Origin: an uncultured Nitrososphaerales archaeon
Lineage (GTDB): Archaea; Thermoproteota; Nitrososphaeria; Nitrososphaerales; Nitrososphaeraceae
Assembly: GCA_963695855.1 (NCBI GenBank)
Contig: CAVOHZ010000008.1
Location: forward strand, 256,001-320,000
Direction of reading: 5' to 3'
Length of the DNA stretch: 64,000 nucleotides
How positions within the stretch are numbered: position 1 is the stretch's first letter; each line of letters starts with the position of its first letter. Shown here in pieces: positions 33,780 to 52,569 of this stretch. The notes under the pieces are model-generated. The model saw only the letters and a program-made list of their open reading frames with translations, did not search any database and was not told where the DNA came from. The translations under genes were made by a program, and so were the position numbers.

Positions 33780-34270
33780 CCTATCCCAAAATTATTCTCC
33801 TGTAGATAATAATGCTACTTGCTAATTTTACAAGACCCAGATAGTTCTCATCCTTCTTTTCATATCTTGTAAATAACTTCCTCAATCTGTTATGCCATGA
33901 ATTTGTTCTCTCTCTACAACCCATCTTCTTGCTGGATGTTTTCTACGAGATATTTGTTCTTCTCTTCTGTCTCTTATATGGGAAATATATCATCGCTTGA
34001 CAATTTCTTGTTCTATTTCTTTGGAATGATATGCTTTGTCAAGGCACAGGTTCTGTTTGTGTTTATGCTTTGGTTTGGATAATGATGGTCTTTTGATAAC
34101 CATGCTGTCAACTGTATTAATTGCAACAGTGACATCATAGTGAGTTTTTGCAGATGATATACTAGCAGATAGTGGAATACCACCATCTTTATCTGTAAGA
34201 ATCTGCCTTTTGGTTCCTAATTTACTCCTATCTGTAGGATTATGACCAGTCATCGCCCCCCTAAAGGAGA
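33780..34270 (-). pseudogene. IS5-family orfB remnant fused to the integrase 3' end
   Basis: MTGHNPTDRSKLGTKR...LCLDKAY; homologous to 15055-15471. Confidence 0.85.
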
Positions 34271-35544: not shown

Positions 35545-35610
35545 TTCTTGAACCTCCTTTTTTGTATGTCTACTATACTGTCGATACTTGTATATGAACC
35601 CGAATACATA

Positions 35611-35656
35611 ACGGGCCCGTCGGGAGTAATACCGATAGCGGTGCAAAAATAAGAGT
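35611..35656 (+). repeat. Consensus att-like core plus arm A directly upstream of the integrase
   Basis: ACGGGCCCGTCGGGAGTAATACCGATAGCGGTGCAAAAATAAGAGT. Confidence 0.92.
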
Positions 35657-36375
35657 ATATGAATTATGACCTAGTCTCAATTAATTAGTCTATTTTTTAC
35701 AAAGAAAATAATTATATTATTATATATAGATAGAAACTCAAGACTCTTACTCCAGAGTAGGCGTATTACTATATAGAACCTAAAATATGGATAATTGTAG
35801 ACACTAATAAACTTATTTTATTTAAATACAGAATAAAAAATAAAATTTGTGTACTTGTAAAATAATTAATTAATAAAAAGTAAATTTTAAATATTAAAAA
35901 CATGATTTGATTTTTTCCCTCAGTTCTGCTCCCAACGTTCTGATCTGCTCTGTTTTCTGTGCTTCCACAAAATTAGAAATTGATTGTAGTCATATGCCCA
36001 CTTACGCAAAATGAAGCTATAATTAATGCATTCAATGTTATTTTATTCCCTATCATTTTTTCCACTATTTTCATGCTACTTTATTGAATGCTAAATTTAG
36101 TTATTAAAAATTGATAACTTTTTAACTAATAAGTAGTCACTAAATTTCTAGTATAAATTTAACTATTAAGAACAAAATCTCTTTACTATCAAAACAAATA
36201 TTGTTTATATGGATTTGATGAAGACGAGACTATTCACAATTCATTATAAGATTTTACTATAAAATTTCTTTATATCTTTTTATAGGTAACAATAGTAATT
36301 AAATATTTTATATACCTTCTACCATGCGATAACCTACAAAATATTAAAAATGATATGTACTAAATTTGACGTACG

Positions 36376-37611
36376 TTGAAGATTATCATTAATTATCGTA
36401 TAATTAATTTACTGACAGTTATAGCTTTGTTTTCAATATTGCTATTTAGTAATAACTCACTTCTAAAAACAAATGTGTACAATGAAGAAGACAATTTAAT
36501 CAACTCAATTTTTGCTCAGAATAGAAATGCCTTTGCAGTTGGGATGGATGTTGAAGATGACGAAGAGAAATCGTTTGAGTACATATTTGATCACTTTGAT
36601 TATATAGAAGATGCTGATTCTGAAAAACAATTAGATACGAATACTAACAATAATGGAGAAGATGATATCCAGTCAATAGCAGAAAATGAAGAAACTAGAC
36701 TTTCCCATGATAATAAAGAAGATGAGGATAGATCTACATTTACATCAAAATCAACGGAGAAAGAAGAATCTGACCATAAATCAGATTTCAATTTCGTAGC
36801 TGTAGGAGATTGGGACTGTAACTCTGAAACTGAAGATACTGTGGAAAACATTTTTGACCATGACCCAGAAGTGGTGCTGGCACTAGGAGATCTTTCATAT
36901 AATGGTAGAGCAGAATGTTGGCTGGATATAATTGAACCAATATCAGACAAAACTGAAATTGCAATAGGTAATCACGAAACTGATTCATCAAAAATTTTGA
37001 GGGATTATATACATTATTTTGGATTGGAAAAACAGTACTATTCTTTTAATTATAAAACTGTTCACTTTATAGCATTATCTACAGAAATTCCATATGAAGA
37101 AGGATCACAGCAATATGAATTTGTAGTTCAGGATCTTGAAAAGTATTCTAAAGATCGATCAATTGACTGGATTGTTGCATTTTATCATAGACAAGTATAC
37201 AGTTCTGGAGGTGGCCCTGAGGACGATGATGATTTTAGGGAGACTTATCATCCATTGTTTGATAAATATAGAGTAGATCTAGCTCTGCAAGGCCATTTTC
37301 ATGCCTATGAGAGATCATATCCAATTAGTTTTAATCATGATTATGGCAATGAACCTATAGTTGAGGATTATGATCCCTCATATTACATAAATCCAAAAGG
37401 AACAATTTTTATAACTGCGGGCACAGGAGGAGCACATGGTATGAAGATCTCAGAAACTAAACCCTTTTCTGCTTTTGGATTAGACGGGGAATTTGGAATA
37501 CTAAATATCTCTGTAGAGAATAACGGAATTACATTATCAGGTTCATTTATAGAGAATAATGACGAGGAGGGTGTATATGACCAGTTTCAGATTATTAAAG
37601 ATAATAAATAA
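36376..37611 (+). CDS. Secreted calcineurin-like metallophosphoesterase with acidic linker
   Basis: VGDWD, LGDLSY, IGNHE, GHFHAYER; N-terminal hydrophobic segment. Confidence 0.9.
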   Translation: MKIIINYRIINLLTVIALFSILLFSNNSLLKTNVYNEEDNLINSIFAQNRNAFAVGMDVEDDEEKSFEYIFDHFDYIEDADSEKQLDTNTNNNGEDDIQSIAENEETRLSHDNKEDEDRSTFTSKSTEKEESDHKSDFNFVAVGDWDCNSETEDTVENIFDHDPEVVLALGDLSYNGRAECWLDIIEPISDKTEIAIGNHETDSSKILRDYIHYFGLEKQYYSFNYKTVHFIALSTEIPYEEGSQQYEFVVQDLEKYSKDRSIDWIVAFYHRQVYSSGGGPEDDDDFRETYHPLFDKYRVDLALQGHFHAYERSYPISFNHDYGNEPIVEDYDPSYYINPKGTIFITAGTGGAHGMKISETKPFSAFGLDGEFGILNISVENNGITLSGSFIENNDEEGVYDQFQIIKDNK

Positions 37612-37904
37612 AAAAGAATTAAAAAAGAATTATAGTTACTTTTTCTACATCAATATTGAGCAGAAAATTTAAATTACAATGAATAAGCCGTCAACCGTAT
37701 GAAATATAGAATAAATTATTATGTTACTCTAGGTATCAAATTTATGGTATCGATATCTTGTTCTGCAGGAAACATTAGAAAACTATATACAGAAATCGCA
37801 TCAAGAAATTTTCCTTCATTCCATGGATTAGAAAGATACGGGGCAGATATTTGAATATCTCGCTCGGCTAAATCTCTTAATTGAACCAAACTCATCTTAC
37901 AAAA

Positions 37905-38110
37905 TTATATTTGTCCAATTATTGACAGTAGATTTTTTTCAGATTTGTCGAGTTGATATGTTTCCATTTTATTGAGGTATTCTTCATATCCTTTTAATTC
38001 TTGAAGCTTTTTTGATTGTTCAATTCCTATTACTGGTAATTCTTTATCAACCAATAATCCTATCTGGGCTAATAAAGAAGCTTGATCCCAATAGACGTAT
38101 TCATGCAATA
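37905..38110 (-). pseudogene. 3' fragment of a SnoaL-like/ester-cyclase gene
   Basis: HEYVYWDQASLLAQIGLL C-terminal motif; 5' part missing next to the att-like site at 38131. Confidence 0.65.
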
Positions 38111-38130
38111 AAGCGAAAATTTTCCAGGTT

Positions 38131-38230
38131 ATAGTGAACTCTAGAAAAGTACTGACCCGTCGGGAGTGGAATCTTCCATGTAGTAGGGTTCTACTACTAA
38201 TGTTAGCTTTTATTATTAGAAAATTGTTTT
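38131..38230 (+). repeat. att-like site: left arm, core and arm B
   Basis: GTGAACTCTAGAAAAGTACTGACCCGTCGGGAGTGGAATCTTCCATGTAGTAGGGTTCTACTAC. Confidence 0.88.
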
Positions 38231-38300
38231 GATTGAATTAGTAATTATTTTAGCAATTTAAACAATTAAAGTATATATATTTCGGAATGACAAAAATCTC

Positions 38301-39593
38301 GTGTTTTTTATTAATTTTTTAATATTGTTCATATCTTTATTTACCATAAGTTTTTTTTATTCTTTCAATTGTCTTCTCAATATAATACATTTCTATTCTT
38401 TCTCTGTATTGGATTTTATAGTAAACAATTCAAAGTTATTGTTATCAACTAATACAGATGACCATGATTTGTTACAAAATGTAAATGCAGAAAATAATAT
38501 TGAAGATAGAAATTATAGTAGTACCAATCAAATTATTTCAATAAATAAAAATATCACTGATAATAGTAATGTTGTTATTCTTGGTGCCTGGACCCCTATA
38601 AATAATAGTCTTATTCTTCAAAATTTGAAAGGAGAAGAGCAAAAAAATGCAATATACACTCTTCTTAACCAAGGCTTTTATGAATACTACTTTGCCATGA
38701 ATAACTTTGATCATGAATATGCAAAATTAACAGAAGAATTACTAAAATCTGCAGAGAATACTAATCTAAAAATAATAGTAATTCTCCGTCCGCCTTCAGA
38801 AGGTGATTCTAATACAAATTATGACTGGAAAGGATGGATAAAATATTTTAATTCTCTTGAAAAGAAATATCCAAAATCATTTGAAGGATTTACTATAGAC
38901 GATTTTAATTGGAAAAGTACTAGAGAGGAAACAAAATTCAAATTAAATATTGATTTTATGGAATACTCTAAGCTTATTAAAGCCCTTAAAGATAAAGACA
39001 AAGATGTTAAATTTTATCCAACAATATATTTTCAAGGTAAGCGAACTGACAAAGTAGCCAATAAATATGATGATTTTACAGATGGATTAATTGTAGCCAG
39101 TGGATGCTATTACAATGTTTCTACCTTAAAAAAAGAATTTACCATATTTAAAGAAATTTTTGAAAAGCCTATTAGATATGTTGTCTATCCTATTATAACA
39201 TATAATTATTCTAGACAAGGATATAATCCTCCGACAGACCGCCTTATACAGGCTACTTTATCCATAGCATCCAATTCTGCTGATGGACTAATTATTTGGC
39301 GCGATATAGATAAGCCAGTAATACAAGAGTATTTGGATAATCAAGATGATAAAAAATATCTAGCAAAAATATCAAAGATTGAAGAATTGCAGATTAATGA
39401 TGAAAAAATAACTACAGCTAATTCTAAAAAAAAGTTATTGAATACACCAAATGCTGAGCAATATCTTAATTGTCAAGAATGGTCTAACAGATTTAATAAG
39501 GCATATGATAAATGGAAAGATTTATCTCAACAAGAAAAAGAAGAGGACAAATGGAAAAAAGAGATATTACAAATAATAAGGAAAGATAAATAA
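38301..39593 (+). CDS. Membrane-anchored hypothetical protein, possibly a glycoside-hydrolase-like TIM barrel
   Basis: 430-aa ORF; N-terminal hydrophobic segment; GFTIDDFN and ADGLIIW motifs. Confidence 0.6.
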   Translation: MFFINFLILFISLFTISFFYSFNCLLNIIHFYSFSVLDFIVNNSKLLLSTNTDDHDLLQNVNAENNIEDRNYSSTNQIISINKNITDNSNVVILGAWTPINNSLILQNLKGEEQKNAIYTLLNQGFYEYYFAMNNFDHEYAKLTEELLKSAENTNLKIIVILRPPSEGDSNTNYDWKGWIKYFNSLEKKYPKSFEGFTIDDFNWKSTREETKFKLNIDFMEYSKLIKALKDKDKDVKFYPTIYFQGKRTDKVANKYDDFTDGLIVASGCYYNVSTLKKEFTIFKEIFEKPIRYVVYPIITYNYSRQGYNPPTDRLIQATLSIASNSADGLIIWRDIDKPVIQEYLDNQDDKKYLAKISKIEELQINDEKITTANSKKKLLNTPNAEQYLNCQEWSNRFNKAYDKWKDLSQQEKEEDKWKKEILQIIRKDK

Positions 39594-39646
39594 ATATAAT
39601 ACAGAAAACTAAAATTATCTAGATAGGAAGAATTTATAGTAGTTCT

Positions 39647-39785
39647 ATTAGTCTCTAAAGCAGATTCCGCATAAATAATATTTGTCGCACATAGTGGACC
39701 TGAGAAAAGTACGGGCCCGTCGAGAGTGGATCCTTCCATGTAGTAGGGTTCACCCAACTTGTATATAGCTTTTATCATTAGGAAC
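39647..39785 (+). repeat. att-like site: long left arm, core and arm B
   Basis: ATTAGTCTCTAAAGCAGAT...GAGAAAAGTACGGGCCCGTCGAGAGTGGATCCTTCCATGTAGTAGGGTTC. Confidence 0.88.
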
Positions 39786-39924
39786 TTAAGTAAAATAATT
39801 GTACAATAACAGACTAATCTTCATTTGGTTCGATAGAATCATCTATAAATTTCAATACAATTGTTTTTCTTTTCTATCAAATATGAAATACTGTTTTATA
39901 CAACATGTGAAATAAAGCATTTTA

Positions 39925-40110
39925 TTGGAACAGAGAAGAATAGGAATAATTTTTATGGTGTTAGGCGCTGTCATGTTGGCAATTCCGTTAATTATAACTA
40001 TAACAGAGAATTCCATTCGAATATTTGTTCCAATGATTGGTTTACTATTTTTATTGTTTGGTTTTCCAATAATATTAAGTAGTAAGAAAGGCAAGAATAT
40101 AGAAAATTAG
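39925..40110 (+). CDS. Small two-TM membrane protein
   Basis: 61 aa; two hydrophobic helices and a basic tail. Confidence 0.6.
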   Translation: MEQRRIGIIFMVLGAVMLAIPLIITITENSIRIFVPMIGLLFLLFGFPIILSSKKGKNIEN

Positions 40111-40152
40111 ATAAATACAAACAAAATCTTCTACCATGATGAATATACAGAA

Positions 40153-40220
40153 TAATATCGATAGCGGTGCGAAAATAAGAGTCTAATGTATGGTACTAAA
40201 GAAGATAATATTTAGGATTT
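40153..40220 (+). repeat. att-like arm A copy
   Basis: TAATATCGATAGCGGTGCGAAAATAAGAGTCTAATGTATGGTA. Confidence 0.85.
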
Positions 40221-40435
40221 ATTTAATCGGTATTTATTATGTTAACATCTTAATTTTATTTTATTTTGTTATTTTTCATATCTAAAAATGCAGAATTGGA
40301 TAATCTCAATTCTATTAGATTTTCCTCCAATTTTAAAAAAAGATTAGACTGTATGAATTTTTCTTACTAACTAATCATAGTAACAATTAGAAAACTTGTT
40401 ATAGGTTGTTATATCATTGTAGATGTTATATTCTT

Positions 40436-40828
40436 CTAATTCTTATATTCTAATTCGAATTTGAGAGTGCTGTCCTCATCTTTTGGTAATTCTTTAGTCT
40501 GACAGTATTTTGAATTATCATCTGATTCGTCTAAACATACTTCAACTTCATCACCTGGTTGGCCTGATATCGTTTCTTTTATTTTTTCTGTGTCATCTTT
40601 TAAGTCTACCGTTGTTTCTACCTTATCATCTTCTGTTTTGATAGAGAGATCTGCTGTAGTATCAACATTTTCTTCATTCTTGATGGATATATCAAGCTTA
40701 TAATCTTCTGCAAAAGATTTTTGAGAGATCAGGGAAGGAGAAACAAATAAAGTTGCTATCATTGATAAAGATATAATAAATGTCACGTTAATTCGTAGAC
40801 AATTTTTTTCCTTTATTATATTATCCAT
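40436..40828 (-). CDS. Secreted acidic beta-rich hypothetical protein
   Basis: Signal peptide ending SFA; paired Cys. Confidence 0.7.
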   Translation of the reverse strand: MDNIIKEKNCLRINVTFIISLSMIATLFVSPSLISQKSFAEDYKLDISIKNEENVDTTADLSIKTEDDKVETTVDLKDDTEKIKETISGQPGDEVEVCLDESDDNSKYCQTKELPKDEDSTLKFELEYKN

Positions 40829-40957
40829 ATTAGTTATTTATTATTATTATATAAAAATCTTTAAAGATATATATCTATAAAAAAAATCAGAATTAAATAT
40901 GGTATAATATTCTATTTAATTTATAATATTCTAAAATTTAGTTTATTGTGAAATGAG

Positions 40958-41682
40958 GGTCCTGTAAAGTTAAAATTATTTTACGCCCAATATTGAAAGG
41001 AATTCCTATCTAATCTTTGTATTATACAGATAAATGAATAACTTGATTCAATTATATACATGTAATATATTGCATTCTTCTCCTTCTGTTTTTCCAGATT
41101 GTTTACATGGATAATAATCATCAAAACATTCTGTCCTATCCTTGAGATACTGCATCACTCTTTCTATCAGACCTTTCTCTAAAGGTGAATGTAGATGATG
41201 TTTTAATCCAATTATATTGCATACTTCTGGATATCATGTTCCACGATCAGTATAAACTGGACGTCTTCCGTATTTCTCAACTAATGATCTAATAAATTTC
41301 TCAGCAACAAGCATATTTCTCTCTTGTAAAATATAGATTCCAAGTACAAATTTGTCAATTGGTTCAATAGAAATCCATAACCAAAAAGTAATGATTTCCT
41401 ATCTGAACAATAGTTTCCTCTATGATGAACGCTTATATTCTTTTTTTCTTGTAAATCTGCAATGAACCAAATCATTGAATCCAGTTTCATACAACAACAT
41501 AACTCCTTTTTTAATCGTTAAAAGGTTACAGTTCTTTTGACGTATTTCGTAGACTGAGATCAAATACAAATACAAAGAGTACATTACAGTGAATGCAGAT
41601 GTTCTATTTCTTTAAAATCTTAACAACATATTTTGTAGTAGAACATTCACAGATATAGTTCCTTCGTTAACTTAACAGAACC
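40958..41682 (-). pseudogene. IS6-family element, inactivated
   Basis: Both inverted repeats present; multiple frameshifts and stops; 3' two-thirds near-identical to 52745-53300. Confidence 0.85.
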
Positions 41683-41759
41683 ATCATTTACGTTCAACTA
41701 AATAGTCCAGATCAATAAAAACAGGATCACTGTAAATAAAATTAATGATAATGAGTGGC

Positions 41760-41860
41760 CCTAAATATTATTTCCTTATTACTATAACATTATACTGTTA
41801 TTTTTGCACCGCTATCGGTATTACTCCCGACTGGCCCGTACTTTTCTAGGGTTCACCTCA
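41760..41860 (-). repeat. att-like site (minus orientation): left arm, core and arm A
   Basis: TTATTTTTGCACCGCTATCGGTATTACTCCCGACTGGCCCGTACTTTTCTAGGGTTCACC. Confidence 0.9.
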
Positions 41861-42118
41861 TTTAGATATATTTAGTTAAAGGTAATTAGACGATTCATTA
41901 AGAGATCCGTTGAAATTCTTAAGTTACCATTTGAATTAATGGCTTATAAAATAAGGTTTAAACATATGTCTGTTGCTTTGGCCCAATCAAATAATAGGGT
42001 ATTATACCCCAAATTCTTCAAACATGAAAAATGCTTTTGCTTCCGTCTGATGTATAGAAGATTTTGTATTCTTTAACCACGTAGTGTTCTTAAATCTTTA
42101 ATTGAATTTTCAGGATAT

Positions 42119-42410
42119 TTGAGGATGCAGAAACAGAATCTATGTCTTGACAGGGCATATCATTCCAGAGAAGTAGAACAAGAAATTGTCAAGAGAGGAT
42201 ACATTCCACATATACGACATAGAAGAGAAGAAAAGAAACTGAACAAGAAATATCCTGCAGGAAGACGGGTACTTGAGAGAACAAACTCATGGCATAACAG
42301 ATACAGGAAATTGTTTACAAGATATGAAAAGAAGGTAGAAAACTATCTTGGTCTTGTGCAATTAGCAAATTGCATAATTGTTTATAGGATGATAATTTGG
42401 GTAGATTCTA
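42119..42410 (+). pseudogene. IS5-family orfB 3' fragment
   Basis: LCLDRAY...VLERTNSWHNRYRKLFTRYEKK; near-identical to 57834-58121. Confidence 0.85.
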
Positions 42411-42767
42411 ATTATAGTCAAAAACTTTCCCCTTGTTTATTATGATTTTTAATGTGGCATTGGTCAGAACAAAAATAATCATCACATATGTTACAATATA
42501 TTGGATAGTCTTGAATCTTCTTATAGCAGCTCGCACACGTGGTAGCCATATCCAAATTTTATTATCATACGATGTATTGTATTTCTTACTTACAAAGTTT
42601 TCTTTTTAGATTCAATATTATAGTTAAATAAATCTAGTCAATCGAAACTGGAAAAATGATTTATCTAAAATTGGTATATAGTTTTATTACAGAAGTAAAA
42701 TTTTACTTTAAATGAAAGGAAACGACTGACTAAAATACTGGAAGAGATCATCTACAAGATAATTGAT

Positions 42768-43418
42768 ATGAAAATTGGAATTATTGGAGCAGGTGATGTT
42801 GGCAGCACTCTAGGAAATAGGTGGATAAGAAAAGGAAATCAGATTTTCTTTGGAGTTAGAAACATCAATAGTTCTAAAGTTCAAAATATGTTAAAATCTC
42901 TAGGCTCCGATATTAAAGTTGGAACCATTAGCGAAGCAGCTTCGTTTGGAGATGTAGTAGTACTGTGCGTACCTTGGGAGGCAGCAAAAGAAACTATCGA
43001 AAATGCTGGAGATTTATCTGAAAAGATCTTGGTGGATCTTACTAATCCAATTAGTAAAGATCTAAAAAGTTTAGTAGTCGAACCTTCAACATCAGCTGCT
43101 GAAGAGATTGCAAGATGGTGTAAAGGTTCTAAGGTGGTGAAAGCATTTAATGCCATAGGTGCGAAGACTATGAATGACCTCCAATTTGATTCTTATAGAG
43201 CAGATACTTTTATTTGCGGAGACGATTTTAAAGCAAAATCCGTAGTAACGAAATTAGCAAAAGAAGTAGGTTTTGATGTTGTAGATGTTGGTCCTCTTAT
43301 TAATGCAAGACTGCTGGAACAATTGGCGTTATTGTGGATTGAATTGGTCATTAGACAGAAAATGGGACCAAACATTGCTTTTAAACTCTTGAAAAGAAGA
43401 CCTCGTTTGGAGATGTAG
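42768..43418 (+). CDS. F420-dependent NADP oxidoreductase family protein
   Basis: IGIIGAGDVG Rossmann motif, LVDLTNP, SAAEEIA, VVKAFN, CGDD, DVGPL. Confidence 0.9.
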   Translation: MKIGIIGAGDVGSTLGNRWIRKGNQIFFGVRNINSSKVQNMLKSLGSDIKVGTISEAASFGDVVVLCVPWEAAKETIENAGDLSEKILVDLTNPISKDLKSLVVEPSTSAAEEIARWCKGSKVVKAFNAIGAKTMNDLQFDSYRADTFICGDDFKAKSVVTKLAKEVGFDVVDVGPLINARLLEQLALLWIELVIRQKMGPNIAFKLLKRRPRLEM

Positions 43419-43861
43419 TAGTACTGTGCGTACCTTGGGAGGCAGCAAAAGAAACTATCGAAAATGCTGGAGATTTATCTGAAAAGATCTTGGTGGATCT
43501 TACTAATCCAATTAGTAAAGATCTAAAAAGTTTAGTAGTCGAACCTTCAACATCAGCTGCTGAAGAGATTGCAAGATGGTGTAAAGGTTCTAAGGTGGTG
43601 AAAGCATTTAATGCCATAGGTGCGAAGACTATGAATGACCTCCAATTTGATTCTTATAGAGCAGATACTTTTATTTGCGGAGACGATTTTAAAGCAAAAT
43701 CCGTAGTAACGAAATTAGCAAAAGAAGTAGGTTTTGATGTTGTAGATGTTGGTCCTCTTATTAATGCAAGACTGCTGGAACAATTGGCGTTATTGTGGAT
43801 TGAATTGGTCATTAGACAGAAAATGGGACCAAACATTGCTTTTAAACTCTTGAAAAGAAGA
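42942..43861 (+). repeat. Apparently exact 459-bp tandem duplication (42942-43400 and 43403-43861)
   Basis: Seen directly; the units are separated by CC. Confidence 0.92.
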
Positions 43862-43942
43862 GGTGGAATGTAATATTAATTGCATATTTTCTTGTTTTGG
43901 TCATTAATTTCAATATTATTAATCTTTGTAGATAGTTAACAG

Positions 43943-44672
43943 GGTGCTGTTAACTTAAGTTGGTTCGTCTCCTAATTTGAGGGATAGAGTTTCATTTCTC
44001 ATTCCTGAATTATAGAAATATACAAATAATTTCATGCAATTGTAAATATGTGATAGACCACAATTTTTCTTTATTGTTATTGTTCTTACAAGGATAGTAA
44101 TCATCAGAAGATTCAATTCTGTCCTTGAAATATTGCTTTACCCTTTCAATCAAACTCTTTTCTATGGTGAATGCAAGCGATGTTTCAAATGTAAGAAATG
44201 ACATGCTTGTGGATACCAAGTACCACCATCTGTATAAACTATATGTCTTCCATATTTGTCAACCAAAGAATTGATAAAATTATTTGCTACAATCATGTTT
44301 CTCTCTTCTGAAATATAGATTCCAAGTACAGATCTATGAATCGGTTCGATTACAATCCATAACAAAAAATGTTGACCACCAATCTGAATTATAGTTTCAT
44401 CTATGATGAATACAGATATTCTTCTGTGTTTGTTATATATTTGGCATGAACCAAATCGTTGAATCTACTCGCACACAGCAACATAACTTCTTTTTTTGTT
44501 CCTTAAATGGTTCCAATGCATTAGACGTATTTCGTAGACTGAGGCCAAGAAAGTATAGATAAAGAGAATACATTACCATAACTGTGGATGTTCTATTTCT
44601 AATGAATTTAATAAGCATAGATTAGAAATAATACATTAGCATCTAAATCTATTTCCTTAAATTAACAGGTAC
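43943..44672 (-). pseudogene. IS6-family element, frameshifted
   Basis: Three partial ORFs; inverted repeat GGTGCTGTTAACTTAAG at 43943. Confidence 0.85.
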
Positions 44673-44863
44673 AATTAGTGTGTAGCTTAATTCAACAATA
44701 ATAAATTTTATTCATAAACAAATTATGCTACAACAATATGAACTTGTTATATAACATTATCTTTACAGTAGTCGCCATCCTTTGCATACTAAATTTTTTT
44801 GATAGTAAATGTTCGACCAATACACGTTTTAACGATGAAAAGAGATTATATAATTTTCTCAAT

Positions 44864-45166
44864 TTATCTACTACATGTAGGAAGTAAATCTAAATGAAAT
44901 TTAGAATCCTCTTGATCGACTAATGTCCACCTTCCATACGTTATAGTATCTACTTTAAGACGAATAATCTTGCCTAATCTATCGGTAAAAATATTGACTA
45001 CGTCGTCTATTGTACTATTTCGGAGTTTCATTCTAATCTCTTCAATGGTAAATTCGATATCCGTTTCGTGCCTTTTAGGACTTGTATCATGATCATTCAT
45101 AATCACACTATGTACGTGTCCTTTTTTGTCTTTTTTGACGCATTTTATGTAAATGTTATGACTCAT
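44864..45166 (-). CDS. Hypothetical protein, DUF3892-like
   Basis: IYIKCVKKD N-terminus and LDLLPTC C-terminus resemble DUF3892. Confidence 0.5.
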   Translation of the reverse strand: MSHNIYIKCVKKDKKGHVHSVIMNDHDTSPKRHETDIEFTIEEIRMKLRNSTIDDVVNIFTDRLGKIIRLKVDTITYGRWTLVDQEDSKFHLDLLPTCSR

Positions 45167-45729
45167 GATATATACTCACCTCGCTACTAAATATATCATA
45201 TATCAAATAGAGAACGTGAAATTAAATAACCATTTCATATGTAAATGACTTTATATGTTATTTAATAATAATTCTAAATATCGTATCCTATTTTTCAACC
45301 TTCTTAGATACACAATATGAAATTACCTTCGGTTGTAATGCACTACATAAGAGGCAGAAATGCCACTCGATCCGAATGGCCCGTTTTTATCAGTGTTCGT
45401 ATACATGTGTATTTTTATAATATTTGTAATAATGAGTTACTCTCATAGTTTAAAAAATGTATGAGCAAATTGAAACCGCTGAAAGTAATTTAAATAAAAA
45501 TTTGATAGGAATTTTCAAAATATCTAGTCTCAAAAGATACAAGTGCAAATTATCAGAGAAACTGTATCAAAGTTATGTTGATGTTTGCAGATTTTTTACA
45601 GTCAAGAAAATAGGTAAGCAACTTAACAGTAGTAAATTCTTTTGATGATATTATAGCATTTTTGAATACAAGAAGAAAAAACAAAGATGAAGACTTCTAG
45701 TTCTATTATTGTCTAAAACTTATGAATCG

Positions 45730-45790
45730 CTACATTAGACTCTTATTTTCGCACCGCTATCGGTGTTACTGTCTCCTGCAGATATTTCAC
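45730..45790 (-). repeat. att-like arm A copy (minus)
   Basis: ATTAGACTCTTATTTTCGCACCGCTATCGGTGTTACT. Confidence 0.88.
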
Positions 45791-45911
45791 CTGTCTATAC
45801 TTTTAAAGTATCCAAAATCAATCTTATCAAGTTCTAATTATGACTATACTATTTTTAAAAATAATTTAATATTTTATATAGATAAACAAAAGAAGAATAT
45901 GACGATATTTA

Positions 45912-46607
45912 TCACATAACAATTAAGCGATTAACAATTCCATATACTTGCTGATTTCCAAAATGATTTCCTGTATCTTTATCATCTGGGTCAATAGTTA
46001 TTGTATTGCCTTTAGAAATGGTTATTGATACTTCTGCATGACTCCATCTAGTTATGCCATTTATTTTAATATCAGCGGTTCCATTTATTGATAAACTGTT
46101 ATTACTATTATTATCTGATGTAGATAGAATTATCACGCCTCCATCATCTTCATTTGCACTAAAGTTTGTTATTTGATGAATATGTCCCATTGAACCATCC
46201 ATAGGCGATGCCAAAAAACTTGCTTCAAAGTTTGTTACATTTCCATTATGGACATTTAAAATCCAGTCTCCAGTTAATATTACTTTGAATGCATTTGTTA
46301 TATTGAATTTATCTTCAGGAACTGTTATAACTAAAGAGCTTATTGTTCCTATAGCAGAAAAAGTTGTGCTCCTATTGCTATTACTACTACTATTTATTAC
46401 AGATTGAGTATTTAGATTCATTTTTTGATTTGTATCTTTATCTTTTTCCATTTGAGCAAATACAATAAATGATGATTCATAATCACCATAATTGTTTCTA
46501 ATCATGGCAAATGTAACTATAGATAATGATAGCACAAGGAATATTGTCGTTATAACTTTAGTTATAGTATTGAATGATGATGACGACAATACTCTTGTTG
46601 TAAACAT
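45912..46607 (-). CDS. Secreted thaumarchaeal hypothetical protein
   Basis: N-terminal TM; ILTGDW...DGSMGHIH...NHFGNQQVYG pattern. Confidence 0.75.
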   Translation of the reverse strand: MFTTRVLSSSSFNTITKVITTIFLVLSLSIVTFAMIRNNYGDYESSFIVFAQMEKDKDTNQKMNLNTQSVINSSSNSNRSTTFSAIGTISSLVITVPEDKFNITNAFKVILTGDWILNVHNGNVTNFEASFLASPMDGSMGHIHQITNFSANEDDGGVIILSTSDNNSNNSLSINGTADIKINGITRWSHAEVSITISKGNTITIDPDDKDTGNHFGNQQVYGIVNRLIVM

Positions 46608-46839
46608 TATTATCGTTATTCTTAATTCTATTATAAATATCTAAAATAATTAGCTTATTATATGGTAAACTAAAGATGTAAATTTCTATTATACTTCTTA
46701 CCGTCCTTTATATTAGACTTTACCTAAGAAAAGTTATTATCCTTCTTGTTTCCTTTCTAATAAAACATGTAATTTTTCATCATTCATTATCTTTTCAAAT
46801 AAAAAAGGAACATAGAAAACAAGAAGTGACTGATAACTG

Positions 46840-46945
46840 ATAATAAAATCTAAATACAAGATAGTAGTATCTCTACAATAAACTCTTATTTTTGCACCGC
46901 TATCGGTATTACTCCCAACGGGCCCAACGTTTCCTCGGGCACTAC
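46840..46945 (-). repeat. att-like site (minus): left arm, core, arm A and arm-B tail
   Basis: ACTCTTATTTTTGCACCGCTATCGGTATTACTCCCAACGGGCCCAACGTTTCCTCGGGCAC. Confidence 0.9.
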
Positions 46946-47058
46946 TTTGTTTTAGACCCCCTTGAGTTTCTATCTATCTATCTAATGTTGTTATAGTATA
47001 ATGAAATTGAAGATTATATCATTATACATATATAATTTTATTAGTCTAGTAATATGCC

Positions 47059-47262
47059 TTGCGAATGTTAGATAAAACCAATACAGAAAATATCCCTAAT
47101 ACGAGTTGGTGTCCTAGTTGCCTGGAAGAAGGAATTTCTGTTCAATTGGGTCCACGCCTTTACAAGAAAGAGGAATTAATTGATGGTGACCTACCACATG
47201 ATTCTTTTGATTGGCTAGAGTGCCGTGATTGCGGTCATATAGTCAAAGATTATTTTAATTAA
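47059..47262 (+). CDS. Small zinc-finger protein, copy 2
   Basis: Near-identical to 22756-22959. Confidence 0.75.
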   Translation: MRMLDKTNTENIPNTSWCPSCLEEGISVQLGPRLYKKEELIDGDLPHDSFDWLECRDCGHIVKDYFN

Positions 47263-47274
47263 TTAACTAATTTA

Positions 47275-47405
47275 TTACTCTAGTGATATTTTGTTACCGA
47301 ACATGGATAAGGTAACTGTTCAACTCCCGACTGGCCCGTAGTTTTCTACGGCCCACTATATACGATAAATATTATTTATGCATCATCTGCTTTAGAGACT
47401 AATAT
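47275..47405 (-). repeat. att-like site (minus): long left arm, core and arm C
   Basis: GTTCAACTCCCGACTGGCCCGTAGTTTTCTACGGCCCACTAT...TCTGCTTTAGAGACTAAT. Confidence 0.88.
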
Positions 47406-48091
47406 GTTTTTAGAGTTTAAAACCGATAAGATACACAAAATTCATATAATAAATGGAGATTTATAATACTGCAATATATTATTTTATAAAAACACTCCAC
47501 AATAAAAAAAATTATTATGAATAGGAGAAAGGATTTGTCTGCTAGAATTGACAATTAAAAAACATAAGCTAGTTGGTGTAGAAACTGTCTTTTCTATATC
47601 AAGAATATTTGGAAATATGTTACTCCCATTACACTCTTTTTATTCTAAGTTTACATCTGTCTAACATTTCATCTACAGTGTCAGTATCATTTTTGTTTTA
47701 TGCATTTCATTCAATTATTTTAACTAGTTTTATGCTAAATTTTTTTATCCGGTTAAAAATAAGGATAGCATCTGTTCCATCAAAAAAACAACAATAGGAA
47801 AGAAAGAAACAGATAATTCGATATGAAAAAGAAAAGGTAAGGATTACAAACTTTGATATTGTAATTACGAATGATGTAAATTTTGATTCAAGTTAGAGCA
47901 AATATGTTAAACGTTATTATAGTAATCATTAATTGTCAAGCTTCATACGATCAATATGTTATTTTAAGACTGATAAAAACACTTATGGATTATGAAACAA
48001 AAAATTTTGATTCTATAAATAATTCCAAAATTCTAATACATAGAGAATATCTTTTTACATAATTGATAAAAATAATTTGTTTGTTTGATAA

Positions 48092-49024
48092 TTATTGACA
48101 GAATTTTCTTAGTTCTTTAACAAATTCAATAGTTTTGTTTACATCATAATTTTTTTCTGCATTCATGGCAAGAATTACTCTATCTACGCCAGATCTTTCG
48201 AGCATAGATAAATCAGAACCAATTTCATCAATTGTTTCTCCAGTCATAGGAGACCGATTACTTTTTTTTTCAGAGCTACTTCCCACAAGATAAGGAAATG
48301 TTAAAATAGTTAGATCAAAATCCTTCCTTTCTCTTGTACTTTTTTTAATCGAATCATTGAACATTTTAATGGAATTTTCAAAATATTCAAATGATCCTGC
48401 TAAGGTTCCTATATAACCATCTCCATATTTTATCATACGCTCAAACGTCTTTGGCGAGAAACCCCCAAGAAAAATTTTAGGGTGAGGTTTTTGAATAGGC
48501 TTTGGATCAATTATTGACTTCGGAATTTTGTAAAAGTCTTCATTAAATTCTACAATGTCTTCTGTCCATACCTTTTTCATAGCTTTGAGAATTTCGTTTG
48601 CTCTTTCTCCTCTTTTCTCATAAGGAATATTAGCGGCAAGATACTCATCTTTTGACCATCCAATACCAAAACCACAGATTGTCCTACCTTCAGATAAAAT
48701 GTCTATTGTAGTAAACTCTTTAGCAAGTGTTATAGGATTATGAAAAATCATATCAATAATACAAGTTCCTAAATTTACCTTTGTTGTATTAGCCGCAATA
48801 AATGCTAATGTTGTTAATGGATCTAAAACATTCTTAAAAAATTCAGGCCATTCTCTTTTATCTGGAGTCCCGGGATACGGCTGTTGGGGATTGAGAGCAT
48901 ATAGCATTCTATCATATACCCAAAGTGATTCAAATCCTTCTTGTTCTGCAAGTTGAACAAATCTAATTAGATTTTCTTTAGTAGCATTTATGCCAAATTG
49001 AGGAACAGCTAATCCTACTTTCAT
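48092..49024 (-). CDS. LLM-class F420-dependent oxidoreductase
   Basis: AEQEGFESLWVYD, LDPLTTLAFIAANT, LSEGR...GIGW, PKPIQKPHP. Confidence 0.92.
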   Translation of the reverse strand: MKVGLAVPQFGINATKENLIRFVQLAEQEGFESLWVYDRMLYALNPQQPYPGTPDKREWPEFFKNVLDPLTTLAFIAANTTKVNLGTCIIDMIFHNPITLAKEFTTIDILSEGRTICGFGIGWSKDEYLAANIPYEKRGERANEILKAMKKVWTEDIVEFNEDFYKIPKSIIDPKPIQKPHPKIFLGGFSPKTFERMIKYGDGYIGTLAGSFEYFENSIKMFNDSIKKSTRERKDFDLTILTFPYLVGSSSEKKSNRSPMTGETIDEIGSDLSMLERSGVDRVILAMNAEKNYDVNKTIEFVKELRKFCQ

Positions 49025-49085
49025 ATCTATTATTAATTTTTATACTATAAAGACATAATGTAATCAATATTAGTATCTATTTTTC

Positions 49086-49526
49086 TTAATTAGAATATTT
49101 CCAACTTATAGTCTTTTGAATATCAATTATAATGCAAATGTCTCCAATTCCTACCATTTTTTTATACTGAAGATATTTTTCTGACAATAGTGAATGAGCT
49201 TTTTCTATCGTATCTCTATCTTTTAACCTATTTACTATTTTTGCTTTACCTTGGATTATTAAATAAGAAAGATTACTCCAGTCTTTATCGTCATATGTAT
49301 CAATTAGAAAAGAAATATTAGGATTTTTTTGTATATTTTTTACTCTTTTTAACTGGTTTGAATTTACCCTTTTAGGTTTGTCATCTATTGGAATGAAGAT
49401 ATTATTACCATCAAATGCAAATACCACGGGTATTAGGTAAGGTTGATTAATCTCAGGATCTACTGTTGCTAATCTGGCTATTTTTGAATTATTCAAATTT
49501 TCTAATGTTTTTCTGTTTTGCATCAA
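49086..49526 (-). CDS. PPOX-class (pyridoxamine 5'-phosphate oxidase-like) probable F420-dependent enzyme
   Basis: ARLATV, PYLIPVVFA, IDDKPK, LKRVKNIQKNP, DWSNL. Confidence 0.88.
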   Translation of the reverse strand: MMQNRKTLENLNNSKIARLATVDPEINQPYLIPVVFAFDGNNIFIPIDDKPKRVNSNQLKRVKNIQKNPNISFLIDTYDDKDWSNLSYLIIQGKAKIVNRLKDRDTIEKAHSLLSEKYLQYKKMVGIGDICIIIDIQKTISWKYSN

Positions 49527-49839
49527 TCTACTGCTATAGAAAAGATCTATAACTTAAATTTTTATACTTGTGATTTTTTATATGATAAAATCTTTTATCT
49601 ATAATTTAGATAGAACAACAAATAATATAAAAACATAATAGATGTTTTCCACTTGCTCCCATTAACTAAATGGAGTCCATACTTCCAAATAGGTATATTT
49701 AATATGTTACTAAAGTACTTTATATTATAAAGATTAAATGGGACCAGATAACTTAAATGGGTTCACTACTGTTGATCAGCTAGATTTGTGGGATTTGAAT
49801 GCTTCTATAAAGTGGGGATAGATATTTTCTAATATTAGT

Positions 49840-50889
49840 TGTTGTACTTACACAGATAGGTAACAGATTCACTTACCAACATGGGTAACACTTTTTATCT
49901 GCTTATTTGTTTTGATATTCTTACAACTATTTAATCTTCCTTTCATAAGAAACATTTCAGATGGTGTGTGACCATTGATTCCACCATGTTCTCTTGTTTC
50001 ATTGTATGCTTTGACAAACATGGAATATCTTCTCTTTCCTTCTTCTCTGTTGGAAATATTTTCTATTGCCAAAAATTCATTTTTGACTATCTTGTTATAT
50101 GCTTCAATTTTACCCTGTAGTTGTGGATATCTAGCAGGTATGGATTTATCTTTAATGTTGTTACGTTGTAGAAAACGTCTGAAGATTTTGGATGTAAGCT
50201 GTTTACCATTATCATGCATTATTTTGTGAGGTTTACCATTCTCTACTATGTAGTCTTCCAGTACCTGTAGTACATCTACACTTCGTTTTCTTTCAGACCA
50301 GTCACTTGTTACCTTTCTTGAACAGTCATCTTCACAACTGATAAAATAGTTCTTTTGAGTAGAATTCTCAAGGTAAAATGGTCCTAAAATGTCCATCTGT
50401 ACCATTTGATTGGGTTTTTCCATTGCAAATCTTTTGTATTTTCTATTTCTGATCTTGCATCTTAGTATGTTCAGTCCATGTCTTTTCAGTATCTTGTAGA
50501 TGGTTTTTGTACTGAAGGAGATATCATTCAGTCGTCTTAACCTGAACCTTATGCGATTGCAACCAAATCTTTTTGTTACACGTAAATCCAATATTTCCTG
50601 TTCTATCTCATTTGTTACTTTTCCAGGTTGTATATTATATGGTTTCCTACTTTTATCCCGTAAACCGTCTATTCCATTCTCAAGGTACCTGTTCTTCCAT
50701 TTGTAGTATGACTTTCTAGATGTATGATATCTATTACAGATATTAGTTACAGTATCTCCAGTCGACTCTTTCTCATGAATTAAATTAAATTTTGTTTGTA
50801 ATTCTATTTTTGTATACACTTCCTAGCAGATTAGGAAGTGTTACCTATCTCGGTAAATGAAATTGTAACCTATGTTGGTAAGTACAACA
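49840..50889 (-). mobile_element. Intact IS481-family element; transposase 49869-50819
   Basis: Ends TGTTGTACTTA...TAAGTACAACA; 6-bp target duplication ATTAGT at 49834-49839 and 50890-50895; HTH plus QMD/HDNG/GKIE integrase core. Confidence 0.93.
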
Positions 50890-51202
50890 ATTAGTTATTA
50901 TATTAATTCTAGTCTACTGAAGAGGATCAAATAAGAAAATGGATAAAGTGAATGAAGATGTTAATGGTGACTTAGCAGATAAACTAATTATGTTATTAGA
51001 AGACTACTAACAATACTAAGAACAAACAATATATTTTATCATATTGTCAAAGATTATAATGAAGTTTAAAAAATAATGTATGTTATTTGTACACAAAAGT
51101 ACTATTTTGCAGCAATGCTAGGACAGTAGGATCTATCCTACCAGCATCGGACATGGTGAAGTAATGAGTTGACGTGTCTGCCTATGCTCCATAGGGTTTA
51201 TT

Positions 51203-51237
51203 CTCTTATTATTGCACCGCTATCGGTGTTACTCCCG
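51203..51237 (-). repeat. att-like arm A plus partial core (minus)
   Basis: CTCTTATTATTGCACCGCTATCGGTGTTACTCCCG. Confidence 0.85.
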
Positions 51238-52511: not shown

Positions 52512-52569
52512 AAAAGGAAAGGTAAGGATTACAAACTTTGATATTGCCATTATGAATGATGTAAATTTT

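Follow-up and report, generated by a model that had tools for sequence, protein, structure and literature searches.

The repeated sites in the 64,000-nt stretch of archaeal DNA analysed here (the window) are quite probably joints at the attachment sites of one integrative-element family, forming a tandem-accretion array that was presumably reshuffled by an integrase at the end of a tRNA gene. The array is composed mostly of integrase-less modules gained by tandem accretion, which were later inverted and riddled with IS elements. The system is of an already known kind, seen here in an unusually fine-grained, modular form.

The repeated core matches the 3' end of a tRNA gene

When reverse-complemented, the core, ACGGGCCCGTCGGGAGT, gives the 3' end of a tRNA gene that contains an intron (C8:2734-2821); its 17 nt comprise the last 16 nt of this gene plus 1 trailer nucleotide. 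ARAGORN returned '???' or 'Stop(tta)' for this tRNA, which is 74 nt long and has a 14-nt intron. Going by an anticodon loop with a 37/38 intron, it is most likely tRNA-Lys(UUU), and its D-arm hardly differs from the one in tRNA-Lys(CUU). Among 46 core-like sites, C8:2734-2821 alone runs on into a tRNA-Lys body; the repeat is the 3' part of a tRNA gene, and one copy completes the gene. With up to 3 mismatches allowed, GGGCCCGTCGGGAGT has 11 matches in the window versus 0.04 expected (11 or more in 0/100 shuffles). The hexamer GGGAGT alone was not significantly enriched in the window (18 matches versus 10.4 expected; 18 or more in 3/100 shuffles). Most sites also have a left motif, RTGAACCC-KAG-RAAASTRC, in common, and we judge the ~20 nt to the left of the core to be a generic component of the site.

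A tyrosine recombinase homologue adjoins the core

A putative, divergent tyrosine recombinase gene (34261-35544, minus strand; 427 aa from ATG), whose product ends in a C-terminal CxxC...CxxC zinc ribbon, adjoins core S17 (35611-35627, plus strand), a 17/17 match to the tRNA 3' end. Between them lies an integrase-proximal arm (P_L; 35545-35610, plus strand), which ends in ...TATATGAACCCGAATACATA, is identical over more than 60 nt to the tRNA trailer at C8:2822+, and is kept beside integrase homologues in other genomes. On its other side S17 runs into arm A (35628-35662, plus strand), as in an attP-like or tandem-element junction. The distance of 66 nt from integrase gene to core is found in the window, beside the C8 tRNA, and in several genomes. 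An 80% identical paralogue (C8:2802-4172) directly follows the tRNA at C8:2734-2821, and other paralogues adjoin tRNA-Arg (60% identical), tRNA-Val and tRNA-Met genes. Besides the window and C8 copies, an integrase lies beside the core at 10 core-bearing loci among 80 relatives. Two counts weigh against our main reading: the other 10 of the 11 window cores have no integrase gene beside them, and only two intact Lys-type integrase copies were found in G000.

The window integrase gave weak XerA/XerC-like matches in NCBIfam (E = 4e-4 and 3e-3, with XerA far below its cut-off), 14.6 bits in Pfam against a cut-off of 27.1, and no match in a PDB search by sequence. Weak matches to Pfam Phage_integrase were obtained for 8/12 family members (best 3e-4), and the 60% identical paralogue beside tRNA-Arg scored 28.1 bits, above the cut-off; because paralogues pass this cut-off, the family can be tied to PF00589. 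R179, K207, R298-H299, W320 and Y330 are invariant across 12 integrase sequences, and we infer that R179, K207, R298, H299, W320 and Y330 form a putative catalytic R-K-H/Y-R-H/W-Y set. An SSV-type ('suicidal') integrase was considered and rejected, as the core at 35611-35627 is 66 nt upstream of the ATG at 35544; a longer TTG-started ORF covering this core is read-through of tRNA-like sequence.

Four att-type joints have the core in common

Pooled over genomes and metagenome contigs, and not within a single strain pair, the material contains all four joints that attB x attP recombination would give. The native trailer-core-tRNA joint is present in the nearest relative (G048:C64), and the integrase arm-core-arm A joint at 35611-35662 of the window, at C8:177079, and in L060, L063, L160 and others. 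The integrase arm-core-tRNA joint occurs at C8:2806, in L024, L028, L053 and L062, and at G138:C41, and the native trailer-core-arm A joint in L142, L143, L154, L195, L200 and L204. Between attB-type and attP-type partners, the 17-nt core is the sole common sequence. The tRNA-Lys bodies of five genomes adjoin four different left arms, a fifth contig beginning at the core. In Logan contigs of soil metagenomes the joints have short sides of 20-36 nt. No excised circle or empty site was seen.

Flank swapping at the core

The first-pass annotation of the window had described three left arms that are each joined through the core to different right arms, an observation that stands for its main example and in part for the other two. 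In that example, left-arm module L1 (ATTAGTCTCT...AGAAAAGT; 39647-39710, plus strand) leads through core S19 (1 mismatch) into arm B (39711-39751, plus strand), and its counterpart L1' (47340-47405) adjoins core S22 (47323-47339), both on the minus strand. The copies at 39647-39727 (+) and 47405-47323 (-) have the core and 63 nt of left arm (86% identity, 47405-47340) in common, and diverge right after GGGAGT/GAGAGT into arm B (GGATCCTTCCATG...) versus arm C (TGAACAGTTACC...). Another species (G112:C69) has this left arm, with over 40 nt of additional flank, in front of yet another, third right arm. The S22 core itself resembles S19 up to position 11 and S14 from position 13.

The left arms at 15815 and 22665, which precede core S13 with arm B (15835-15875, plus strand) and core S14 with arm C (22683-22729, plus strand), agree at 20/24 nt by the core and are reciprocal nearest neighbours; the next best arm reaches 19/24, and nothing further out is alike. 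The left arm at 38131, said to recur at 58381 and 41860, agrees with these at 17/24 only, which is the generic motif and not specific, and its true relative is C8:220279 (189 nt at 80%, with the same arm B). Two of the three claimed shared left arms are thus the generic 20-nt motif only.

When left and right flanks were clustered, the arms assorted independently (18 left versus 8 right clusters). One-sided homology stops at the core in seven pair groups of G000 (S17/S28, S10/S28, S19/S22, S14/S22, S20/S24, S00,S30/S37 and S03/S08,S29). In a narrow, unbiased test of all repeat endpoints in the window, 5/111 clusters lay within 45 nt of a core versus 2.0 expected (p = 0.055, not significant). 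A wider oriented zone, set post hoc, held 12/111 endpoint clusters versus 2.6 expected (p about 1e-5). The S20/S24 pair illustrates the pattern: S24 with arm A (41788-41839, minus strand) and S20 with arm A (58400-58451, plus strand) have a left extension of 559 nt in common at 98% identity (41840-42398 and 57842-58399), and on the right only the 36 nt of arm A. The switch point of arm D lies 3 nt earlier, after GTCGGG, and arm C has 5 further nt (TGAAC) in common with the tRNA. Some swaps are not at the core: in front of the module at 45771-46876, G000 has arm A, G059 has arm B and G138 has neither arm, and homology starts only in the next module (CTTGTATTTAGC...).

Two modules show how the units are built. 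Core S18 with arm B (38151-38191, plus strand) opens a single-gene module whose cargo ORF (38301-39593, plus strand; 430 aa) is of no known family: it has no Pfam, NCBIfam or PDB match and hits only hypothetical Nitrososphaerota clusters in the Atlas. The ORF is present in 14/24 other genus genomes, where arm B or arm A precedes it. Homology to the nearest relative (94%) begins at 38160, inside GTCGGGAGT, and its right end (39649) is not at a core; L1 stands there in place of a conserved 3' tail found in the orthologues of other genomes. The second, a mini-module at 46928-47322 (minus strand), has two bounding cores, S22 and S23 (with arm A, 46876-46927, minus strand), begins with arm C, and holds a 67-aa zinc-ribbon ORF (47059-47262, plus strand). 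Its duplicate at 22700-23085, next to core S15 with arm A (23086-23137, plus strand), is 96% identical over 350 nt, and the left flanks of the two share no more than the generic motif. The att-bounded units 35628-38150, 38168-39710 and 22700-23085 contain no recombinase homologue.

Arrays are co-oriented and found throughout the genus

G000 contains 73 junctions, with 2.5 kb as the median distance between them. Of 51 neighbour pairs within 15 kb, 46 have the same orientation (binomial p = 2e-9), which fits directional integration and not transposition. Ten minus-strand sites directly follow the tRNA gene (C8:2805 to 43678), so that several same-strand att copies lie downstream of the target alongside att-bounded units without integrase, the pattern of tandem accretion; same-strand arrays are also present in other species. 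In the window, 13 plus-strand junctions are followed by 5 minus-strand ones and then 1 on the plus strand; one of the first group is core S16 (2 mismatches) with arm A (33334-33385, plus strand). The arrays of the window are 255-315 kb away from the tRNA gene and run in the opposite sense to it, which calls for additional rearrangements. In the nearest relative, adjoining modules of the window sit on different contigs at 94-95% identity. The window is also rich in other repeats and IS copies, and the genes counted here as its flexible pool encode cyclases, F420-dependent enzymes, a phosphatase and a metal efflux pump, with one additional chaperone operon.

The core followed by arm A was found in 21/21 sampled genomes of the genus (with relatives named Ca. 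Nitrosocosmicus), in 4/129 genomes of the family's other genera (0 for a reversed-pattern control), and in at least 120 metagenome contigs. Arm A alone has 44 copies in G000 and is present in 25/25 genus genomes. As 24 of these 44 copies lack the tRNA-like part and have only ...(G)AGT ahead of the arm, the arms are modules with a life of their own. Such copies lie in the window at 40154-40188 (+) and start at 2545, 12499, 12734, 17007 and 19629 (+) and at 45767 and 51230 (-).

The annotation had read the swapped flanks as the footprint of site-specific crossover. This reading is supported by the tRNA origin of the core, the adjoining tyrosine-recombinase homologue, the four att-type joints and the co-orientation of sites; it needs widening to a whole accretion array, with a generic left part of ~20 nt and arms A and B that also occur without the tRNA part.

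Proposed mechanism and alternatives

We propose that a tyrosine integrase uses the final 16 nt of the tRNA gene (most likely tRNA-Lys(UUU)), together with 1 trailer nt, as its recombination site, and that successive insertions at the att copy next to the tRNA, or at one inside the array, would build module arrays by tandem accretion. A module would open with one of the right-arm modules A, B, C/E and D and close with a left arm and a fresh core copy. Most modules would have lost, or never had, an integrase and would carry one or a few accessory genes. Because any two sites have the core in common, integrase-mediated exchange would swap flanks exactly there and so generate combinatorial left x right pairs; direct sites would lead to excision or re-insertion, and inverted sites to inversion. 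The exchange is presumably performed by an integrase of the 34261-35544 type, with integrase-less modules mobilised in trans. As a guess, the T-stem halves may be the core-type binding sites, with exchange beginning at the AGT of the T-loop.

A more far-reaching possibility, which we hold only tentatively, is that the arrays are a working integron-like gene-capture platform belonging to the genus, served in trans by a few tRNA-Lys-specific integrases and with the arms as recombination signals. Here the compound site would consist of the left motif, the tRNA-end core, GAGT and 35-40 nt of arm A or B; integrases would excise, re-insert and invert single-gene modules, and the arm modules would be cassette-borne functional counterparts of attC. 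Genus-wide conservation of the arms and the GAGT-only joints would follow if the arms are such signals. If true, ammonia-oxidising archaea would possess a second cassette system of independent evolutionary origin, whose captured items include an extra high-GC dnaK operon.

It is improbable, in our view, that these are modular intergenic repeats reshuffled by homologous or microhomology-mediated recombination and gene conversion without any role for an integrase, the tRNA-like core being merely the best conserved module. The abundance of arm A, over half of whose G000 copies lack the tRNA part, module swaps at the arm/tail-module boundary, and the repeat- and IS-rich setting would all suit such reshuffling. 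Yet the attB-type and attP-type partners have just 17 nt in common and all four joints exist nonetheless, 46/51 neighbour pairs are co-oriented, a run of 10 sites starts at the tRNA gene, and recombinase genes recur 66 nt from the core.

Two further explanations are each very unlikely. Resemblance of the core and part of arm A to tRNA sequence, the intergenic position of 44/44 arm A copies and, by our own reading, a 9/10 inverted match between the end of arm A and the start of L1 (ATTAGTCTCT) could suggest a miniature transposable element of tRNA origin, akin to a MITE or SINE, whose left arm, core and right arm insert together as a unit. The MITE class was rejected on account of the independently assorting arms, an orientation bias unexpected for transposition and the lack of inverted arm A pairs at a fixed distance; moreover, no target-site duplications were seen, and arm A follows neither of the L1 copies. 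A conserved functional RNA or regulatory signal at gene ends (a tRNA-like small RNA, terminator or promoter operator), its mosaic arising by descent, would agree with the high conservation of GAGT and arm A (about 40 nt) across the genus, the placement of arm A sites near gene ends and the TATA-like tails that we read after the arms, but it leaves the tRNA and integrase joints unexplained, no Rfam family reached its gathering score in the window, distance and strand to the next ORF are inconsistent, and folding 60 environmental sites to a consensus gave 8 pairs, 0 of them with compensatory change, and a covariation term of 0.01.

Relation to known systems

Tandem accretion at a tRNA end, our preferred reading, can be set beside several known systems. 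Integrated elements of Thaumarchaeota use tyrosine integrases at tRNA genes (57% of cases, nearly all at the 3' end), with a median att length of 17 bp, which the 17-nt core fits (Krupovic et al., 2019; PMC6563490). They resemble the present system in phylum, tRNA 3' targets including intron-bearing ones, short att sites and re-use of sites into arrays. Unlike it, the surveyed elements are single, several kb or more in size and each with its own integrase; dozens of integrase-less modules of 0.4-10 kb, with arm modules conserved genus-wide, do not appear in the survey's account of such elements, and Nitrosocosmicus has 0 occurrences in its main text.

Streptococci show tandem accretion and cis-mobilizable elements (CIMEs), including at the tRNA-Lys 3' end, and their tandems have complex excision patterns (reviewed in PMC5704250). 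As here, decayed elements keep attL/attR and newcomers integrate into an att copy; these, as reviewed, are bacterial conjugative or mobilizable elements with few units per locus (PMC5704250). The archaeal array, in contrast, counts 73 junctions and many inversions, and the window showed no transfer genes. The works cited in the review include Pavlovic 2004 and Bellanger 2011.

In Dehalococcoides, multiple ssrA-specific islands follow in tandem after a small-RNA gene that is present once, with a 20-bp direct repeat of the gene's 3' end bounding each island, and about half have no integration module and were proposed to be cis-mobilizable (McMurdie et al., 2011; PMC3146451). Strain-specific accessory cargo and conserved flanks around the repeat are alike; as that paper presents them, the islands are larger, have repeats within 100 kb in one orientation, and involve a serine recombinase (DsiB) and tmRNA (PMC3146451), versus a tyrosine recombinase, a tRNA target, much smaller units and dispersed inverted blocks here. 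In Thermococcales, another archaeal tRNA-targeting integrase, Int(pTN3), is proposed to drive large chromosomal inversions between site copies (Cossu et al., 2017; PMC5495485). It belongs to a different integrase family, in hyperthermophilic Euryarchaeota, and here it is only the orientation of the sites that points to inversions.

Archaeal integrons have been reported (bioRxiv 10.1101/2022.02.06.479319), and the outline is similar: mostly single-gene modules, a conserved site between them, and few integrases for many modules. An integron was nevertheless rejected, because no IntI-type integrase was found and the weak NCBIfam matches included no integron-integrase model. The site is not an attC-like imperfect hairpin and comes from a tRNA end; attC-type palindromes were rejected because the 60-site consensus fold is a T-arm-like hairpin only. 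The ORFs, too, lie on either strand and have no common promoter.

Implications

The host belongs to a genus of soil ammonia-oxidising archaea with large genomes and few described mobile elements. If our main reading is true, much of the flexible gene pool would lie in arrays both built and reshuffled by one tRNA-anchored site-specific recombination system, which would explain why assemblies of these genomes break at core/arm sites. The core followed by arm A may serve as a sequence tag for flexible regions in metagenomes. To our knowledge the lineage has no genetic tools, and the candidate integrase with its att pair may be usable for developing them. The system would also account in concrete terms for how genes are gained, lost and inverted in these archaea.

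A repeated core matches the 3′ end of a tRNA gene

The window spans positions 256001-320000 of contig C8 in a genome of 3.55 Mb (~31% GC, 11 contigs) that carries a short repeat represented by the 15-mer GGGCCCGTCGGGAGT. The window contains 11 matches to it with at most 3 mismatches (0.04 expected; a count of 11 was reached in 0 of 100 shuffles), and with at most 2 mismatches there are 30 copies genome-wide, 17 of them on contig C8. One copy, at C8:2806 (minus strand), continues into a tRNA, which ARAGORN placed at C8:2734-2821 as a 74-nt tRNA with a 14-nt intron. The program returned its anticodon as '???' or 'Stop(tta)'; we read the gene as a probable tRNA-Lys with anticodon UUU and an intron at the canonical 37/38 position, and the tRNA-Lys(CUU) gene has an almost identical D-arm. 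Read as its reverse complement, the full 17-nt core consists of three T-loop nucleotides (ACT), the 3′ strands of the T and acceptor stems, the discriminator and a single trailer base. The hexamer GGGAGT alone was not significantly enriched in the window (18 matches versus 10.4 expected).

Most sites also carry a generic motif on the left, RTGAACCC-KAG-RAAASTRC. This motif (e.g. window 38131-38150 and 58380-58399) contains TGAACCCGAGA, which repeats, in direct orientation, the T-loop/T-stem segment found beyond the core in the tRNA gene itself; where such an arm is joined to an intact tRNA, the core is thus flanked by this 11-mer on either side.

Left and right arms are re-paired at the core

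Throughout, left denotes the tRNA trailer side of the core and right the tRNA body side. We collected 46 core-like sites with at most 4 mismatches to the 17-mer in the genome and kept 37; nine (S04, S05, S09, S21, S25, S41, S42, S43 and S45) proved to be other tRNAs, chance matches or backward readings of the palindrome and were dropped. Single-linkage clustering of the flanks by global identity merged nearly all sites, owing to the AT-rich DNA, and anchored blastn was used instead. This gave 18 left-arm clusters and 8 right-arm clusters, the latter comprising arm A (22 sites), arm B (6 sites), arm C (3 sites), arm D (2 sites), the tRNA body (1 site) and three clusters of one site each.

Clustered separately, the two flanks were incongruent. 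One left arm is common to S17, S10 and S36, which continue into arm A, and to S28, which continues into the tRNA body; another is shared by S19 (arm B) and S22 (arm C), a third by S01 and S32 (arm A) and S31 (arm D), and more than 10 left clusters have arm A as a partner. In several pairs, long one-sided homology ends at the core. S17 and S28 share at least 300 nt on the left at 87% identity and nothing on the right; S20 and S24 share 559 nt (98%) on the left and 36 nt, arm A only, on the right; S00 and S30 share 644 nt (94-95%) with S37 on the left and 35 nt on the right; and S03 shares 660 nt (98%) with S08 and S29 on the left and 11 nt on the right. S14 and S22 show the converse, with 16 nt on the left and 350 nt (96%) on the right. 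At the few positions involved, the core of S22 equals that of S19 up to position 11 and that of S14 from position 13, as a crossover inside the core would give.

The first-pass annotation had described arms exchanged precisely at the core and read them as the footprint of site-specific crossover, and this observation was partly confirmed. Its leading example was borne out: 39647-39727 (plus) and 47405-47323 (minus) share a left arm of ~64 nt (63 aligned at 86%) followed by a near-identical 17-mer, and directly past GGGAGT/GAGAGT the sequences are unrelated, with arm B from 39728 and arm C from 47322. The left arms at 15815 and 22665 match at 20 of 24 nt at the core and are reciprocal nearest neighbours, but the runner-up already matches at 19 of 24. 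The left arm at 38131, also said to recur at 58381 and 41860, matches these at only 17 of 24 nt, the level of the generic motif. Homology in the pairs named here ends at the core as proposed. The picture is less clear for all repeat endpoints in the window, most of whose repeats are insertion sequence (IS) copies with ends of their own: 5 of 111 endpoint clusters lie within 45 nt of a core, versus 2.0 expected (p = 0.055). An oriented zone allowing for generic arms, picked post hoc, held 12 of the 111 versus 2.6 expected (p ~1e-5).

All four joint types are present

An integrase-proximal left arm (...TATATGAACCCGAATACATAAC) continues through the core into the tRNA-Lys body at C8:2806, at L024, L028, L053 and L062 (L-numbers denote relatives' loci or metagenome contigs) and on contig C41 of genome G138. 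The same arm continues into arm A at window position 35627, C8:177079, L060, L063, L160, L163, L170, L187, L202, L208 and L215. Another left arm (...ATAAATAGAGGCATATTTGCWAC) precedes an intact tRNA-Lys on contig C64 of G048, runs into arm A in six metagenome contigs (L142, L143, L154, L195, L200 and L204), and is also found where contig C8 ends, the assembly stopping inside the core. Taken across genomes and metagenome contigs, the joints constitute a full attB/attP/attL/attR set. Together with the incongruent clusters and the one-sided homology ending at the core, they support the reading of the arm swaps as a site-specific-crossover footprint. Across tRNA-Lys bodies from five genomes we found four different left arms; a fifth contig starts at the core.

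Assemblies tend to break at the core or at arm modules, as on short contigs such as G048:C30 (2840 nt), and array regions in draft genomes are therefore probably under-assembled. The end of C8 (~601321) lies inside a core behind a candidate native tRNA-Lys trailer, and G012:C15 starts at the core of a tRNA-Lys. Logan contigs from soil and cave metagenomes hold parts of the window (best word share 0.57) and, against 33001-49000, show joints between module positions, including 35632>38175, 38197>39762 and 35653>39771. We did not count these, as their short sides span 20-36 nt each and they may come from other strains or repeats.

Several module boundaries recombine

Some features depart from a simple att scheme. 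The conserved block of arm A begins at GAGT and is ~40 nt long, and 24 of its 44 copies in the genome have no tRNA-like part in front. In other genomes, orthologues of a 430-aa gene have a conserved 3′ tail leading into (G)GAGT and arm A without the GGGCCC part, while in the window's gene this tail is cut and the 64-nt left-arm module of 39647/47405 stands in its place. Arm A heads the module at 45771-46876 in this genome and arm B heads it in G059, and G138 has neither arm there; homology among the three begins only at the following tail module. Arm B is also found after a different ~120-nt left arm ending in GGTCGGGAGT. The tail replacement, the varying heads, the second left arm of arm B and the arm A copies lacking a tRNA part indicate that several module boundaries recombine; the core is the best supported of them, and the arms may themselves act as recombination signals.

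C-type right arms (C10:756898, C10:930955 and window 22700-22760) have a common distal motif, ATATCRCTAGAGTAATAAATT, ~45-55 nt from the core. The first 11 nt of the one at C10:756898 are tRNA body, and a decayed tRNA copy may therefore be the origin of arm C.

Other roles for the sites fared poorly. A function of arm A as the next gene's promoter was rejected because neither the spacing nor the strand of the following ORF is consistent. For 60 environmental sites, the consensus fold contained only a T-arm-like hairpin (GTCGG/CCGAT) and showed no compensatory change, the site alignment showed no covariation and the window has no Rfam family, so that a structured RNA is not supported. A viral origin was likewise rejected, since viral_contigs has no exact match to arm A, with or without the core.

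A tyrosine-recombinase-like integrase family adjoins the core and tRNA genes

A putative integrase ORF at 34261-35544 (minus strand; 427 aa from its ATG) adjoins the window core at 35611-35627. The ATG is 66 nt downstream of this core, which rules out an SSV-type integrase interrupted by its own att site. An 80% identical paralogue starts directly after the tRNA at C8:2.8 kb, and more paralogues adjoin tRNA-Arg, tRNA-Val and tRNA-Met genes. The window protein matches NCBIfam XerA at E = 4e-4, far below the model cut-off. Pfam Phage_integrase matches weakly in 8 of 12 aligned family members (best 3e-4), and in a whole-genome PF00589 search the tRNA-Arg-linked paralogue (60% identical) passes the curated cut-off with 28.1 bits. 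The family alignment has invariant R179, K207, R298-H299, W320 and Y330, and a double CxxC at the C-terminus. A profile search against PDB sequences gave no match. Nearly all of the 80 relatives found are in Nitrososphaeraceae-named records, many of them Ca. Nitrosocosmicus.

Junctions form same-strand arrays with varied cargo

Pooling cores, arm A and arm B gave 73 junctions in the genome, 37 of them on C8, with a median spacing of 2.5 kb (quartiles 1.1 and 4.9 kb). Neighbours within 15 kb have the same orientation in 46 of 51 cases (binomial p = 2e-9). Ten same-strand sites extend from the tRNA-Lys gene (2.8 kb) out to 43.7 kb, and the window junctions run as 13 '+' (2545 to 40154), five '-' (41822 to 51230) and one '+' (58417). 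A mini-module with cores at both ends occurs in two different contexts (22700-23085 and 47322-46928). Other species have same-strand arrays spaced at 1.1-12 kb; on G012:C16, the last 18.8 kb lack sites, so that this array stops short of the contig end and is not linkable to the tRNA-Lys that opens C15.

The intervals between junctions contain one or a few ORFs, on either strand, as well as IS copies. Window cargo includes two adenylate/guanylate cyclases, a cation efflux protein, an ABM monooxygenase, a purple-acid-phosphatase-like protein, a 67-aa zinc-ribbon protein and the 430-aa protein (38301-39593), for which family searches matched no family. Of 24 other genus genomes, 14 have the latter, often as multiple copies, and in the window's genome a decayed copy with 16 in-frame stops lies at C6:191304-192575.

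The array also encloses a dnaJ-dnaK-grpE operon (25513-29109, minus strand) with IS copies on either side and 43-47% GC (GC3 41-44%) versus ~31% for the genome; with a second dnaK at C10:1577485-1579230 (59% identical), it looks like an extra chaperone operon of recent acquisition. An NADPH-dependent F420 reductase (npdG-like) gene contains, at 42942-43861, a perfect 461-bp tandem duplication (42942-43241 = 43403-43702) that leaves two ORFs (42768-43418 and 43490-43873), and one soil-metagenome contig (run X1, record 7) joins 42941>43403 without it. An IS6-like element with a 219-aa DDE_Tnp_IS240 ORF is present in many copies and fragments (4854-6332, 24470-25140, 40958-41563, 44166-44667 and 52561-53300), among them a back-to-back inverted pair (4854-5314/5869-6332) and a 99% identical inverted pair (40958-41522/52736-53300). 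Other IS genes in the window are IS4/5, IS481-like (rve) and IS630-like. IS copies may account for some inversions.

The sites are conserved across the genus

Core plus arm A (at most 3 mismatches) was found in all 21 sampled genus genomes, at 1-27 copies each, versus 4 of 129 genomes from other genera of the family; a reversed-pattern control gave 0. Arm A by itself is present in 25 of 25 genus genomes (3-110 copies each), and at least 120 metagenome contigs have an exact 24-mer spanning the core/arm A junction. Modules adjacent to each other in the window are located on separate contigs in the nearest relative, G048, at 94-95% identity, and the homology block for the 430-aa module begins at 38160, within GTCGGGAGT.

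A proposed model of tRNA-anchored accretion

The two halves of the tRNA's T stem make an inverted repeat with the 7-nt T-loop between them, and arm A has a similar inverted repeat (TCGG...CCGA) around GAGTAATA; identity between partners stops after the AGT of the loop. We propose that the integrase would bind the compound site of left motif, core and arm, with strand exchange within the 17-nt identity, possibly starting at the AGT edge of the loop, which fits where identity ends. Integration at the tRNA-proximal or an internal core would add modules, exchange between direct sites would remove or move them, and exchange between inverted sites would flip blocks. Decay of integrase genes would leave cis-mobilizable units.

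Our literature searches found no description of such arrays in Nitrosocosmicus; the supplements of PMC6563490 may list related elements. None of the defining integron features that were tested was found in the array; a bolder, integron-like reading is less likely than not. Published accounts describe thaumarchaeal integrated elements whose short att sites lie in tRNA 3′ ends and can be re-used (PMC6563490), tandem accretion with cis-mobilizable elements as established in bacteria (PMC5704250), and Dehalococcoides ssrA islands, which have 20-bp repeats of the tmRNA end and in many cases no integration module (PMC3146451). As described there, the ssrA islands are a close analogue. Compared with these systems, the array is finer and has more units (73 junctions, median 2.5 kb) with few integrases, its arm modules are interchangeable and conserved genus-wide, and its blocks are dispersed and inverted. 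tRNA-anchored tandem accretion is a known kind of organization, and the system in this archaeon is a variant of it.
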